Shown one piece after another: positions 2-8,705 of a DNA stretch of 9,241 nucleotides. The stretch is from the IMG/VR virus record IMGVR_UViG_2585427789_000003, positions 1 to 9,241 of that record; one strand, given 5' to 3'. Made by a program: the position numbers and the translations under genes. The notes beneath the pieces are model-generated. The model had not been told where the DNA came from. It did not search any database and saw nothing but the letters and a program-made list of their open reading frames with translations. Positions within the stretch are counted from its first letter, which is position 1; each line of letters begins with the position of its first letter. This DNA comes from a virus (lineage: Duplodnaviria; Heunggongvirae; Uroviricota; Caudoviricetes).

Positions 2-1216
2 CGGTTGTTTGATTTCAACAAGCTGGCGATTTACCAGGAGCAGAGCGCATCAAAATTTGAACCGCTTTCCTCGGATGCAAACAACCTGGACGGTCTGAAC
101 ATCCACTGCGCCATTATTGATGAGCTGCATGCACATAAAACCCGCGACGTGTGGGACGTTCTGGAAACGGCAACCGGTGCCCGTCTGCAGTCCCTGTTAT
201 TTGGTATCACCACGGCTGGCTTTAACAAGGAAGGGATTTGTTACGAGCAGCGTGATTACGCCATCAAGGTATTGCGAGGCTATAACAGCGACGTGGAGGG
301 CGCTGTAAAAGACGACTCTTACTTTGCGATCATTTACACGCTCGATGAGGGAGATGATCCGTTTGATGAAACGGTCTGGCAGAAAGCGAATCCGGGCCTG
401 GGCATCTGTAAACGCTGGGATGATCTGCGTCGCCTGGCGAAAAAGGCGAAGGAGCAGGTCTCGGCGCGGGTGAATTTTTTCACGAAACACATGAATGTGT
501 GGGTTACTGCCGAATCTGCCTGGATGGACATGATTAAGTGGGAGAAGTGCGAATACATTGCCCCACGACATGAGCTGAAAACGTATCCCATGTGGGTCGG
601 CGTTGACCTTGCTCATAAGATTGATATCTGTGCGGCGGCAAAACTCTGGCGAACGGATAACGGGCATGTTCATGCCGATTTTAAATTCTGGCTTCCGGAA
701 GGACGGCTGGAACGATGCTCGCGGCAGCAGGCAGAACTTTACCGGAAGTGGGCAGAGATGGGGAAGCTCATCCTGACGAATGGTAATGTTATCGATCATG
801 CTCAGATAAAAAGTGACCTACTGGAATGGATTGGCGGTGAAAACCTCAGGGAACTGGGATTTGACCCGTGGAGCGCAATGCAGTTCAGTCTGGCGCTGGC
901 TGAAGAAGGGATACCGCTGGTGGAAGTTCCGCAGACGGTCCGCAATCTGTCAGAGGCTATGAAGGAAACGGAATCACTGGTCTATGCCGGGCGTTTCCAC
1001 CACAGCAATCATCCGGTCATGAACTGGATGATGTCTAACGTTACGGTAAAACCGGACAAAAACGACAATATCTTCCCGAATAAATCCACGCCGGAAGCCA
1101 AAATCGACGGCCCTGTTGCGCTTTTTACAGCCATGAGCCGCTTTCTGGTAAATGGCGGGGGCGTGAATGACTTTCTGTCCACGCTTGATCCTGATGAGGA
1201 CCTGTTAATTCTGTGA
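2..1216 (+). CDS. Terminase large subunit, 5'-truncated by the window edge (C-terminal part of the ATPase domain plus nuclease domain)
   Basis: The reading frame is open from the window start with no upstream stop, and stops at TGA 1214-1216. A Walker B-like hhhhDE motif (AIIDE) lies at about nt 107-124, so the Walker A must be upstream of the window. An RNase H-like nuclease motif (WVGVDLA, Asp codon 605-607) follows. It sits immediately upstream of the portal gene, the canonical position. Confidence 0.85.
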   Translation, partial: RLFDFNKLAIYQEQSASKFEPLSSDANNLDGLNIHCAIIDELHAHKTRDVWDVLETATGARLQSLLFGITTAGFNKEGICYEQRDYAIKVLRGYNSDVEGAVKDDSYFAIIYTLDEGDDPFDETVWQKANPGLGICKRWDDLRRLAKKAKEQVSARVNFFTKHMNVWVTAESAWMDMIKWEKCEYIAPRHELKTYPMWVGVDLAHKIDICAAAKLWRTDNGHVHADFKFWLPEGRLERCSRQQAELYRKWAEMGKLILTNGNVIDHAQIKSDLLEWIGGENLRELGFDPWSAMQFSLALAEEGIPLVEVPQTVRNLSEAMKETESLVYAGRFHHSNHPVMNWMMSNVTVKPDKNDNIFPNKSTPEAKIDGPVALFTAMSRFLVNGGGVNDFLSTLDPDEDLLIL

Positions 1217-1374
1217 AACAGCTTATTACTGATATGACCGGGCTGATCGGTTTCGGTCTGCTCACTGCTGGCGTTTATCTGTATGCAGGTCTGCCAGCGT
1301 CTCTGATGCTGTCTGGCTGTTTGTTGCTGCTTTATGCACTGGTGGTGTCCATGAGGAGAAAACATGCTTCTTGA
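1213..1374 (+). CDS. Small hydrophobic hypothetical protein (about 53 aa from GTG 1213, or 46 aa from ATG 1234), possibly a two-helix membrane peptide
   Basis: This ORF is below the 60-aa cutoff of the supplied track. GTG 1213 overlaps the terminase stop (GTGA) and has GAGGA about 12 nt upstream. The stop TGA 1372-1374 overlaps the portal ATG at 1364 by 11 nt. The translation (VKQLITDMTGLIGFGLLTAGVYLYAGLPASLMLSGCLLLLYALVVSMRRKHAS) is strongly hydrophobic with a basic C-terminus. It fills an otherwise unexplained 148-bp gap. Confidence 0.4.
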   Translation: MKQLITDMTGLIGFGLLTAGVYLYAGLPASLMLSGCLLLLYALVVSMRRKHAS

Positions 1375-3195: not shown

Positions 3196-4425
3196 ATGAA
3201 ACTGCATGAACTGAAACAGAAACGTAACACTATCGCAACTGACATGCGCGCCCTGAATGAAAAAATTGGTGATAACGCATGGACGGAAGAGCAGCGCACT
3301 GAGTGGAACAAAGCAAAATCCGAACTGGAAGCGCTTGATGAACGAATTGCACGCGAAGAAGAACTGCGTCGTCAGGATCAGGCGTACATTGAAAGCAATG
3401 AGGAAGAGCAGCGTCAGAATCTTGATCCGGAAAACAATCCACAACAGGATGAGAAACGAGCTCAGGTTTTTGATAAGTGGATGCGTCACGGTGCCAGTGA
3501 GCTGACATCAGAAGAACGAAAGGCGTTGCGTGAACTTCGTGCCCAGGGCGTAGCTCAGGATGAAAAGGGCGGATATACCGTACCAGAAACATTCCTGGCG
3601 AAAGTTGTTGAGAAGATGAAATCCTACGGTGGCATCGCCAGTGTGGCGCAGATTCTTACCACTTCTGACGGTCGCACTATGGAGTGGGCAACAGCTGATG
3701 GTACTTCCGAAGTTGGTGTTCTGCTGGGCGAAAATGAAGAAGCCGGTGAAGAAGACACCGATTTCGGTATGGGAAGCCTTGGGGCGCTCAAAATGACATC
3801 GAAAATAATTCGTGTGTCTAATGAGTTGCTGCAGGACAGTGCGATCGATATGGAAGCTTATCTTGCCCGTCGCATTGCTGAACGTATTGGTCGTGGTGAA
3901 GCCCGTTATCTGATTCAGGGGACGGGGGCTGGTACGCCTAAACAACCCAAAGGGCTGGCAGCATCAGTGACCGGCACAACACAGACTGCCGCGGCAAATG
4001 CGGTGAAGTGGCAGGAAATTCTGGCTCTGAAACACAGCATTGATCCTGCATATCGTCGCGGACCGAAATTCCGCCTGGCGTTTAACGATAATACGCTGAA
4101 ACTGATCAGTGAGATGGAAGACGGTCAGGGACGCCCTTTATGGTTGCCGGATATTGTTGGTGTGGCACCTGCTTCAGTGTTGAATGTACCGTATGTCATT
4201 GATCAGGAAATTGATGATATCGGGGCGGGTAAAAAATTCATGTTCTGTGGTGACTTTGATCGCTTCATTATCCGTCGTGTGCGATACATGATTCTTAAAC
4301 GTCTGGTTGAGCGTTACGCAGAATATGATCAGACCGGTTTTCTGGCCTTCCATCGTTTTGACTGTATCCTGGAAGACACCTCTGCCATTAAAGCGCTGGT
4401 GGGGAAAGGTAGCGTTGGTGGTTGA
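3196..4425 (+). CDS. Major capsid protein (HK97-fold) with an N-terminal charged coiled-coil delta/scaffolding domain
   Basis: A 409-aa ORF with AGGAA 5 nt upstream of ATG 3196. The N-terminal ~120 aa are rich in E/R/K/Q heptad-like sequence (for example EALDERIAREEELRRQDQAYIESNEEEQRQ), typical of a delta domain removed by the upstream protease. The gene directly follows the protease gene and is followed by terminator-like hairpins. Confidence 0.9.
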   Translation: MKLHELKQKRNTIATDMRALNEKIGDNAWTEEQRTEWNKAKSELEALDERIAREEELRRQDQAYIESNEEEQRQNLDPENNPQQDEKRAQVFDKWMRHGASELTSEERKALRELRAQGVAQDEKGGYTVPETFLAKVVEKMKSYGGIASVAQILTTSDGRTMEWATADGTSEVGVLLGENEEAGEEDTDFGMGSLGALKMTSKIIRVSNELLQDSAIDMEAYLARRIAERIGRGEARYLIQGTGAGTPKQPKGLAASVTGTTQTAAANAVKWQEILALKHSIDPAYRRGPKFRLAFNDNTLKLISEMEDGQGRPLWLPDIVGVAPASVLNVPYVIDQEIDDIGAGKKFMFCGDFDRFIIRRVRYMILKRLVERYAEYDQTGFLAFHRFDCILEDTSAIKALVGKGSVGG

Positions 4426-4446
4426 TTAGTCTTTTTACGTACTACA

Positions 4447-4471
4447 GCACGCCGCGTAATGCGGTTTTTTT
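4447..4471 (+). terminator. Putative intrinsic terminator or attenuator downstream of the major capsid gene
   Basis: A short GC stem (CCGC 4452-4455 pairing with GCGG 4461-4464, loop GTAAT) is immediately followed by a run of seven T (4465-4471), 27 nt after the capsid stop codon. The stem is short, so this is probably a partial terminator. Confidence 0.45.
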
Positions 4472-4493
4472 GTGCCCGCTTTCTGGCGGGCAC
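4472..4493 (+). promoter_or_regulatory. Perfect 8-bp GC-rich inverted repeat (stem-loop) abutting the ribosome-binding site of the next gene
   Basis: GTGCCCGC (4472-4479) and GCGGGCAC (4486-4493) are exact reverse complements separated by a 6-nt loop (TTTCTG). The repeat ends one nucleotide before AGGAGG (4494-4499) and ATG 4504. No T-tract follows, so it is not a classic terminator. Confidence 0.4.
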
Positions 4494-4503
4494 AGGAGGT
4501 TTT

Positions 4504-4827
4504 ATGCTGTTAAAAATGGAAGAGATTAAGCTTCAGCTTCGTCTGGATGATGATTTCTCTGATGAAGATGAGTTGCTTGAACTACTTGGGAAGGCCGCTC
4601 AGAGTCGTACGGAAAACTTCCTTAACCGTAAGTTGTATGCAACCGCAGATAACAGGCCTGCGGATGATCCTGATGGGCTTGTGATATCTGATGATGTGAA
4701 GCTGGCGCTTCTGCTACTTGTCAGCCATTTCTACGAAAACCGCTCAACGGTTACAGACGTTGAGAAAATGGAGTTGCCAATGAGTTTTAACTGGTTGGTT
4801 GCTCCTTATCGCCTTATACCACTATGA
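4504..4827 (+). CDS. Head-tail connector / head completion protein (phage gp6-like family)
   Basis: A strong AGGAGG sits 4 nt upstream of ATG 4504. The track's longer start at 4459 would read through the hairpins and has no Shine-Dalgarno sequence. The product is about 107 aa, acidic at the N-terminus (LRLDDDFSDEDELLELL), and is the first gene after the capsid, consistent with gp6-like connector proteins. The stop overlaps the next start (ATGA at 4824-4827). Confidence 0.65.
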   Translation: MLLKMEEIKLQLRLDDDFSDEDELLELLGKAAQSRTENFLNRKLYATADNRPADDPDGLVISDDVKLALLLLVSHFYENRSTVTDVEKMELPMSFNWLVAPYRLIPL

Positions 4828-5234: not shown

Positions 5235-5715
5235 TGTTCAGCAGCCCGCGGAGATGCGCTTTAACCGCGCCCGTGTCCGGCGGGCGTTTGTCACGATTGG
5301 TCAGCGTCATATGCGTGATGCCCGACGGCTGGTGATGCGCCGTGCGCGGTCGGCACCGGGTGAAAACCCCGGTTATCAGACCGGACGCCTGGCTCGTTCG
5401 ATTGGTTACATGGTACCCAGAGCCAGTAAAAAGCGAGCCGGTTTTATGACACGCATTGCCCCTAACCAGCGCAACGGGAAGGGGAACCGGATGATCTCTG
5501 GTGACTTCTATCCGGCGTATCTGTTTTTTGGTGTCCGGGGAGGAGCAAAACGTCGTCGTAGTCATCATCGTGGTGCATCTGGTGGCAGCGGCTGGCGGCT
5601 GGCTCCACGTAATAACTTTATGGTGGAAACGCTTGAAAAGAACCGCAGCTGGACACGCTATTTTCTGGCGCGGGAATTACGTAAATCACTGAAGCCGGAG
5701 CGACGACGCAGATGA
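5209..5715 (+). CDS. HK97 gp10-like tail-component / neck protein
   Basis: GGAGG (5199-5203) lies 5 nt upstream of ATG 5209. The region PGENPGYQTGRLARSIGYM matches my recollection of the conserved core of HK97 gp10-family proteins. The protein is very basic, with Arg-rich stretches. It overlaps the upstream gene by 26 nt. Confidence 0.65.
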   Translation: MATSFLHVDVQQPAEMRFNRARVRRAFVTIGQRHMRDARRLVMRRARSAPGENPGYQTGRLARSIGYMVPRASKKRAGFMTRIAPNQRNGKGNRMISGDFYPAYLFFGVRGGAKRRRSHHRGASGGSGWRLAPRNNFMVETLEKNRSWTRYFLARELRKSLKPERRRR

Positions 5716-7931: not shown

Positions 7932-8287
7932 TGGCCCGTATCGGGGGAACCTGTTATTTCAAAATTGACGGTCAGCAGCTATCGCTGACCGGCGGCATTG
8001 AGGTGCCCATGAACAGGACGGTCAATGATGACATCATCGGCCTGGACGGTTCAGTGGACCGCAAGGAAACTCACCGTGCGCCTTATGTCAAAGGGACCTT
8101 CAAGGTGCCGAAGAATTTTCCGGTGAGCAAAATCACCTCGTCTGATGAGATGACAATCACTGCCGAGCTGGCGAACGGTCAGGTCTATGTACTATCGTCT
8201 GCCTGGCTGCACGGCGAAGCGAACCATAATGCCGAAGAAGGCACGGTTGATCTTGAGTTCCACGGTGAAGAAGGGGATTACCAGTAA
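7931..8287 (+). CDS. Tail tube protein (Mu gpM-like)
   Basis: A 118-aa ORF whose start overlaps the sheath stop (TAATG at 7929-7933). It lies directly downstream of the sheath and upstream of the tail assembly chaperone, the canonical order for contractile tails. Confidence 0.8.
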   Translation: MARIGGTCYFKIDGQQLSLTGGIEVPMNRTVNDDIIGLDGSVDRKETHRAPYVKGTFKVPKNFPVSKITSSDEMTITAELANGQVYVLSSAWLHGEANHNAEEGTVDLEFHGEEGDYQ

Positions 8288-8556
8288 TGAAAGAGCTTGA
8301 GTTAAAGAAACCGATTACTGCTCATGGCGAGACACTCTCCGTACTGGAGTTTGATGAGCCCACCGGGAAGGATGTCCGCGAGCTGGGGTATCCCTACCAG
8401 ATGAATCAGGATGAGTCTGTCAGACTTCTGGCGCATGTGGTGTCGAAATACATTGTGCGGCTGGCGAAAGTGCCGCAAAGCTCTGTCGACCAGATGTCTC
8501 CGGCAGACCTGAATGCAGCGGCGTGGCTTGTGGCTGGTTTTTTCCTCCAGGCCTGA
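8287..8556 (+). CDS. Tail assembly chaperone, short (unshifted) product (gpG/gpE-like)
   Basis: An 89-aa ORF lying between the tube gene and the tape measure gene. It ends with GGT TTT TTC CTC CAG GCC TGA, which includes a slippery heptamer, and an overlapping ORF in the -1 frame runs to the tape measure start. Confidence 0.75.
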   Translation: MKELELKKPITAHGETLSVLEFDEPTGKDVRELGYPYQMNQDESVRLLAHVVSKYIVRLAKVPQSSVDQMSPADLNAAAWLVAGFFLQA

Positions 8557-8705
8557 CGGCTGAATACCTCACTGATCGCTTCTTTGACTGCGCCAGCTAC
8601 TGGCGCATTAATCCCTTCGAATTGCTGAATATGTCGATCAGTGAAATTCCCTTGCTGGTCAGTCAGGCAAACAGGATAGAGCAGGAGAAACGCACACATG
8701 GCTGA
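8287..8705 (+). CDS. Tail assembly chaperone, frameshift-extended product (gpGT/gpE+E'-like) made by a programmed -1 ribosomal frameshift
   Basis: The zero-frame ORF 8287-8556 and the -1-frame ORF that is open from 8523 to TGA 8703-8705 overlap across the heptamer T TTT TTC (8538-8544). The predicted fusion junction reads ...WLVAGFF/PPGLTAEY.... The conserved position between tube and tape measure genes matches the lambda G/GT and P2 E/E+E' paradigm. Confidence 0.6.
8538..8544 (+). other. Slippery heptanucleotide (T TTT TTC, X XXY YYZ type) for the -1 programmed frameshift
   Basis: Read directly from the sequence: zero-frame codons are GGT TTT TTC (8536-8544). The -1 frame stays open from here to 8705, whereas the zero frame stops 12 nt downstream at 8554-8556. 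Confidence 0.55.

Follow-up and report, generated by a model that had tools for sequence, protein, structure and literature searches.

A conserved pair of RNA hairpins between the capsid and connector genes of SfV-like prophages and its possible roles in late gene expression

The gap between the major capsid gene and the head-tail connector gene of an SfV-like Escherichia coli prophage holds two adjacent hairpins, a short one followed by a run of seven U (hairpin 1) and a perfect GC-rich one (hairpin 2) that abuts the ribosome-binding site of the connector gene. These are real structures of the sense strand: hairpin 2 is unusually stable, the pairings of both are conserved in an RNA-type manner, and their register between the U-run and the ribosome-binding site is fixed. 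The reading that we favour, and hold to be moderately probable, is that of a two-part intercistronic RNA element which would uncouple the expression of the abundant capsid from that of the low-copy head-completion genes. Such an element would combine termination, RNA stabilisation and translational damping, and all three activities are ones that we infer.

The window and its genes

The window, by which we mean the whole stretch of DNA analysed (9.2 kb; 9,241 nucleotides), comes from an SfV-like E. coli prophage and represents its head and proximal tail module. Between positions 3196 and 5234 its identity is 98.2% with Shigella phage SfV and 99% with Escherichia phage SKA5. A 501-nt query (window 4200-4700) is 100% identical to one E. 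coli chromosome record, and at least 80% of this query is covered by similar sequence in 260 of 5,426 complete E. coli genomes.

The records of SfV, of SKA5 and of E. coli in RefSeq all label the gene 5' of the gap as capsid, and the connector gene starts at ATG 4504 in SfV orf6 and in the RefSeq annotations. An earlier reading of this DNA, made from the letters and a list of open reading frames (the sequence-only reading), had named the two genes as major capsid and connector, and the Pfam families PF05065 (HK97-family capsid) and PF05135 (gp6-like head-tail connector) agree with both names. The same reading had described 4426-4503 as the only substantial non-coding stretch within the structural operon, which is essentially right; the two other gaps hold coding sequence or an open frame.

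The first of these lies between the terminase and portal genes, where PGAP places a 53-aa gene in the E. coli record that is identical to the 501-nt query. In the window this strongly hydrophobic open reading frame (VKQLITDMTGLIGFGLLTAGVYLYAGLPASLMLSGCLLLLYALVVSMRRKHAS; 1213-1374, plus strand) fills the gap, with a GTG that overlaps the stop of the terminase gene (GTGA) and a stop codon that overlaps the portal ATG at 1364. It corresponds to the hypothetical protein WP_000811487.1 (PGAP), it has no Pfam match, and the same stretch is unannotated in the SfV record.

The second is the 141-nt gap at 8557-8697, before the tape-measure gene, in which the -1 frame is open behind a TTTTTTC slippery run. 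The region concerned is 8538-8705 on the plus strand: the tail assembly protein gene (8287-8556) has the slippery run GGTTTTTTCC close to its end, and the -1 frame is open from 8523 to 8705 and reaches the tape-measure ATG at 8698. This is probably a programmed -1 frameshift of the G/GT type, which would explain the apparent gap; it is annotated neither in the SfV record nor in the RefSeq records.

Anatomy of the capsid-connector gap

The features of the gap and of its two flanking genes are as follows.

3196..4425, plus strand: major capsid protein gene (HK97 family), from the list of open reading frames; Pfam PF05065, E 7e-65; TGA at 4423-4425
4426..4450, plus strand: unconserved spacer from the capsid stop to hairpin 1; unalignable among relatives that keep the module, absent in L004-type prophages
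4451..4465, plus strand: hairpin 1, stem of a candidate intrinsic terminator; core CCGC/GCGG, loop GUAAU; matched by the terminator scan
4465..4471, plus strand: U-tract (T7), adjoining hairpin 1 on its 5' side and hairpin 2 on its 3' side
4472..4493, plus strand: hairpin 2, perfect 8-bp GC-rich stem GUGCCCGC/GCGGGCAC, plus U4480·G4485; loop of 4-6 nt
4494..4499, plus strand: Shine-Dalgarno sequence AGGAGG of the connector gene; predicted partner of U4466-U4471 in a helix that continues hairpin 2 coaxially
4504..4827, plus strand: head-tail connector (gp6-like adaptor) gene; Pfam PF05135

Hairpin 1 begins 26 nt after the capsid TGA and is made of five pairs, four of them G-C (G4451·U4465, C4452-G4464, C4453-G4463, G4454-C4462 and C4455-G4461). 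The arms of hairpin 2 are GTGCCCGC (4472-4479) and GCGGGCAC (4486-4493), with U4480·G4485 as a ninth pair. The sequence-only reading had reported a short stem followed by seven T and then a perfect inverted repeat; the stem is found at 4451-4465 and the T-run at 4465-4471, and the repeat, with its 8 bp, has the position and the sequence that were described. It had also placed AGGAGG and the ATG after hairpin 2, where they indeed stand (4494-4499 and 4504). The single nucleotide that it had counted between the stem and the site has to be given up, because AGGAGG begins directly after the hairpin 2 stem, unless the site is read as GGAGG.

The loop of hairpin 1 contains an ATG at 4459 (UAAUG) that shares the reading frame of the connector ATG at 4504; in the SKA5 record the connector starts there, giving 122 aa vs 107 aa. 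We rejected this start because its frame is not conserved, the U-run being 6-8 nt long and the frame being lost in the prophages of the L004 type; judged from these sequences, the SKA5 start is probably an over-extended annotation. A promoter in the gap was considered and rejected as well, there being no sigma-70-like site and the upstream flank being unconserved.

Folding of the gap

Minimum-free-energy folding, which the sequence-only reading had proposed as a check, places hairpin 2 and the helix that extends it far below shuffled sequences. Hairpin 2 alone folds with -17.5 kcal/mol (z -6.4; 0 of 200 shuffles as good), the extended helix, in which U6 pairs with AGGAGG and hairpin 2 continues the stack, with -23.2 kcal/mol (z -5.75), and the whole gap with -35.8 kcal/mol (z -4.3). 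The extended helix is the most stable 40-nt fold of the window on both strands (the runner-up has -21.5), where the 40-nt folds of the plus strand have a mean of -8.1 and a standard deviation of 3.5.

Both the minimum-free-energy and the centroid folds pair U4466-4471 with A4494-G4499. The same pairs appear in the RNAalifold consensus of 33 variants, and the 15-bp helix composed of hairpin 2 and the U-run:AGGAGG pairs dominates the predicted ensemble in the window. The predicted cost of opening the connector ribosome-binding site is 12.7 kcal/mol, the highest among the 12 genes of the window (2-8 for the others), and it falls to 9.2 when the RNA is given a 5' end at 4472. The pairing probability of the ribosome-binding site is not discriminating, since other genes of the window also reach 0.8.

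Hairpin 1 alone does not stand out from shuffled sequence (-7.5 kcal/mol, z -1.25; 27 of 200 shuffles fold equally well), and a generic terminator scan of the window found no excess of sites (10 vs 9.1 expected in shuffled sequence). Because both the fold and the scan stay at chance level, hairpin 1 has to be judged by its position and conservation and not by its energy.

The covariance models of Rfam 15, run over the whole window, gave no match at E <= 1. No REP-like or dispersed repeat was found either: in a search that tolerated 3 mismatches, the element occurs once in the 37-kb SfV genome. A function of the minus strand was rejected; the reverse strand does fold (-31.5 kcal/mol), but A-runs follow its hairpins and the observed substitutions lead to A·C mismatches.

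Conservation across relatives and the mosaic junction

Loci for comparison were gathered from IMG/VR and metagenomes through the connector protein, not through the motif, which gave 250 loci. The module is present in 205 of them, in 59 distinct versions, and the connector identity among its carriers goes down to about 50%. Its pattern can be written as a CCGC stem, a loop of 3-5 nt and GCGG; U6-8; an 8-bp GC hairpin; 0-1 nt; GGAG(G); 4-6 nt; and AUG. The U-run is 6-8 nt long in all 59 distinct modules (7 nt in 49), and hairpin 2 is separated from the GGAG-like site by 0-1 nt in every one of the 59.

The CCGC/GCGG core of hairpin 1 is kept in the 59 variants around many different loops of 3-5 nt, with stems of 4-6 bp and a median energy of -8.2 kcal/mol. 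For hairpin 2 the median is -16.7 kcal/mol, and the 205 loci present 15 stem haplotypes, 12 of which are fully paired, together with 24 loop sequences. Across lineages no alignment is possible 5' of hairpin 1, nor in the spacer that leads from the ribosome-binding site to the AUG. Mean pairwise identity is 85% for the module vs 71% for each of its flanks (connector gene and capsid 3' end), and the module is more conserved than its flanks in 181 of 190 pairs.

More distant relatives (L123, L323, L325, L327, L328, L333 and L338) carry a single canonical terminator at the capsid-to-connector junction, without hairpin 2; it reads, for example, CCCGC-AUU-GCGGG-U7 in L328 and GCGCC-UCG-GCGCG-U6 in L123. 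The ribosome-binding site directly follows the U-run in these genomes, so that no pairing between the two is possible. In three metagenome contigs of this set (L323, L328 and L333) the gene 5' of the connector has at its end a long tandem array of GAGCAGCCA (a peptide repeat of the EQP type) and a lysine-rich tail, after which the single canonical terminator follows.

The E. coli prophages L004 (1500-1556), L005 and L006 have a different capsid 3' end, and their capsid stop codon UAA forms the loop of hairpin 1. Homology between the SfV type and the L004 type starts exactly at hairpin 1 (match H40 covers positions 251-498 of the query), the capsid 3' ends being 51-52% identical and the modules 88-92%. 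This sharp beginning of the homology places the module at a mosaic recombination junction. The module might then be nothing other than a generic terminator, kept as a shared linker where different capsid modules join the connector gene, and both the position of the junction and the L004-type stop codon inside the hairpin 1 loop would suit such a linker. We consider this explanation very doubtful, because the module is also more conserved than the linked connector gene in many lineages, and because wobble-biased substitutions combined with free drift of the loops indicate purifying selection on structure and not recent exchange alone.

Substitutions in the stems

A formal covariation test on 33 distinct modules was not significant: 96% of the cells pair and shuffles do equally well, with double changes in only 2 pairs. 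This outcome is due to the stem columns, which are nearly invariant. The substitutions that do occur can be examined for their direction. In the hairpin 2 stem, G·U pairs arise by six distinct changes of the C>U or A>G kind, and compensation is seen in two pairs (G-C to A-U; U-A to C-G), a mismatch being present in only 3 of the 15 haplotypes; in the stem of hairpin 1 two C>U changes lead to U·G pairs. In a hand count of distinct uncompensated transitions, 8 keep the pairing of the plus strand (6 in hairpin 2 and 2 in hairpin 1) and 1 does not, for which a one-sided binomial test, also worked by hand, gives p about 0.02. The asymmetry would preserve pairing in plus-strand RNA only, and we regard it as suggestive.

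The same substitutions bear on an extremely improbable alternative, namely that hairpin 2 acts as a palindrome in the DNA, the operator-like or packaging-related site of a dimeric protein, and not as an RNA structure. Almost invariant arms around a variable spacer are indeed what some operators show. Variants of the G·U type, on the other hand, become A·C mismatches on the other strand and break the symmetry of the DNA; the sequence is moreover present in a single copy in the SfV genome, and its intercistronic position between a U-run and a ribosome-binding site suits an RNA.

Which hairpin is the terminator?

Hairpin 1 with its U7 shows the sequence features of an intrinsic terminator: a GC-rich stem, a 5-nt loop, an uninterrupted U-tract and a position 3' of the stop codon. 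As a terminator stem it is at the short, weak end, and we regard hairpin 1 with U7 as the canonical terminator candidate of the gap. Hairpin 2 lacks the U-tract of an intrinsic terminator: AGGAGG follows its stem, UUUU comes 6 nt later, and one would have to include the weak U·G extension in the stem to accept it as a terminator. After the hairpin 2 site, UUUU is found only in the SfV subgroup, and the other lineages have AAAAU, AUCCU, AUAU etc. at this place. Since the stem is followed by AGGAGG and the UUUU is not conserved, hairpin 2 is not a conserved terminator; by analogy with other phages, its origin may be the second hairpin of a tandem terminator pair.

Several unrelated phages of IMG/VR (L247, L208, L233, L245, L254, L295 and L299) have a different GC hairpin with U6, then a hairpin of the form RUGCCCGY...GCGGGCRY and a U-rich tail. 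These layouts are true tandem terminators, one of them standing between protease and capsid genes. A pattern scan of IMG/VR for U6 followed by the RUGCCCGY hairpin found it in about 20 unrelated contexts. A control pattern with permuted core, which is not matched for the frequency of stems among terminators, gave 34 matches, mostly coding and without an upstream hairpin. We rejected the idea of a wider homologous motif and claim no homology: U6 with the RUGCCCGY hairpin resembles ordinary tandem terminators with the common GCCCGC stem.

The activity of hairpin 1 has to be considered together with antitermination. Lambdoid Q proteins make RNA polymerase terminator-resistant. SfV encodes a Q antiterminator and has terminators upstream of its lysis genes, so that late transcription complexes should largely ignore hairpin 1. 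Because late transcription of the SfV type depends on Q, partial termination is uncertain and is the least secure step of the reading that we favour. No transcriptome of an SfV-like prophage was met in the literature searched, the searches having been aimed at other questions.

These considerations also open the way to an explanation in which there is no role in lytic stoichiometry. Hairpin 1 with U7, perhaps backed by the extended hairpin 2 and UUUU, would be a safety terminator only, stopping spurious transcription that is not modified by Q, as in the lysogen, while late transcription modified by Q would run through unhindered. The Q antiterminator of SfV and the organisation of its late operon speak for this, the unrelated phages with true tandem terminators have the same layout, and the same alternative has been offered for the intra-operon terminators after the procapsid module in phage L (PMC8022706). 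We still find it a rather unlikely account, since it leaves unexplained why hairpin 2, which has no U-tail, lies 0-1 nt from the ribosome-binding site throughout the 59 modules, and why a strong hairpin without a U-tract stands after the capsid gene of SfII; besides, the site is not a random one but follows the gene of the most abundant structural protein.

Proposed mechanism

In the two-part element that we favour, hairpin 1 with U7 would act as a weak rho-independent terminator that ends or attenuates those transcripts not fully protected by Q, and would define the 3' end of the capsid mRNA. In transcripts that read through, hairpin 2 would have two effects. As a GC clamp it would halt 3'-to-5' exonucleases, allowing the capsid segment to outlive the downstream segment; moreover, by joining the U-run and AGGAGG in one 15-bp helix, it would damp the initiation of connector translation. 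Hairpin 2 is in fact a stable stem-loop 3' of the capsid cistron, as expected of an intercistronic mRNA stabiliser (strong hairpins also stand after the capsid genes of SfII and HK97), and the Shine-Dalgarno sequence lies, in the predicted folds, within the helix, as expected of a translational operator. What the sequence-only reading had proposed, a leaky terminator and behind it a second stem acting on 3'-end stability or on access to the ribosome-binding site, is in keeping with the computed results.

The fixed register also invites an explanation in which hairpin 2 is mainly a translational device, either sequestering AGGAGG or serving as a protective 5' hairpin of the downstream message after an RNase E cut in the U-run, with termination at hairpin 1 as a secondary matter. 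The long helix that dominates the ensemble, the U-run/ribosome-binding-site pairs in the consensus fold and the high opening cost, reduced when the 5' end is at the first nucleotide of hairpin 2, are all in its favour, and the relatives without hairpin 2 have a ribosome-binding site so close to the U-run that it is unpairable. The pairing itself, however, follows from composition. The anti-Shine-Dalgarno pairs are kept in 96% of cells, but this is uninformative because U pairs with any purine; the U-run is the predicted partner of the ribosome-binding site in 32 of the 59 variants, its pairing probability being below 0.5 in the other 27. A strong AGGAGG, moreover, could outcompete weak U·G pairs. 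We judge a mainly translational role to be decidedly unlikely.

Within the favoured two-part element, the U7 might be used twice, as the release signal of the leaky terminator and, in those transcripts that escape (most of them under Q), as the strand that hairpin 2 clamps onto AGGAGG. We put this forward tentatively and would not expect it to hold. If it were true, a single 50-nt module would reduce, relative to the capsid gene, the transcript dose of the head-completion genes as well as their translation, and it would represent a conserved combined attenuator of transcription and translation specific to the clade of SfV-like prophages.

Comparison with known systems

Tailed phages need about 400 capsid subunits and about a dozen copies of each head-completion protein, and make them from a single late transcript. 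A widespread module that exists in natural variants (59 versions, some with the terminator only and some with the hairpin only) would be a convenient test case for how this ratio is set in Q-antiterminated late operons. Leaky terminators after capsid genes include T-phi of phage T7, after gene 10, and the intergenic terminators of phiX174. The likeness lies in a terminator that directly follows the major capsid gene and reduces the amount of transcript from the downstream genes; the difference is that here the polymerase is expected to be terminator-resistant, whereas the T7 and phiX174 systems work, to our knowledge, without processive antitermination of the Q type.

Intercistronic stem-loops such as the REP sequences in malE-malF shield the upstream mRNA from 3' exonucleases and thereby bring about differential expression within an operon. 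Hairpin 2 resembles them in being a strong GC hairpin directly 3' of a highly expressed cistron and before cistrons of low expression. It differs in being single-copy in the SfV genome, and as far as we know it is unlike the REP consensus.

Terminators inside a late operon have been described elsewhere. One of them, in the lambdoid late operon of phage L/P22, follows the procapsid module, as noted in the phage L genome paper (PMC8022706). According to the same paper, intra-operon terminators occur in other phages and what they do is unknown, and either partial termination or the stopping of spurious, non-antiterminated transcription is suggested (PMC8022706).

Three phages offer closer comparisons. 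In HK97 (NC_002167, 5192-5213) a putative terminator is annotated between the gp5 capsid and gp6, in the same position as here and likewise in a Q-antiterminated late operon; it is a single hairpin of unrelated sequence (GGGCGGG-GAAA-CCCGCCC-UUUU), without a second clamp hairpin at the ribosome-binding site. In SfII the capsid gene is followed by the strong GC hairpin already mentioned, which has no U-tract. In SfV itself (GenBank U82619.2 / NC_003444.1) a "putative rho-independent terminator" is annotated at 5547-5584, which is window 4471-4508, that is the same locus in a 98%-identical phage. This annotation, a prediction, spans hairpin 2, AGGAGG and UUUU, and omits hairpin 1 and U7. The feature described here is thus an ordinary one at a site already annotated as a putative terminator in SfV, and our additions are modest: the canonical terminator would be the unannotated hairpin 1, the annotated hairpin 2 is not a conserved terminator, and the U-run, hairpin 2 and the ribosome-binding site keep a fixed register that is conserved across the clade.
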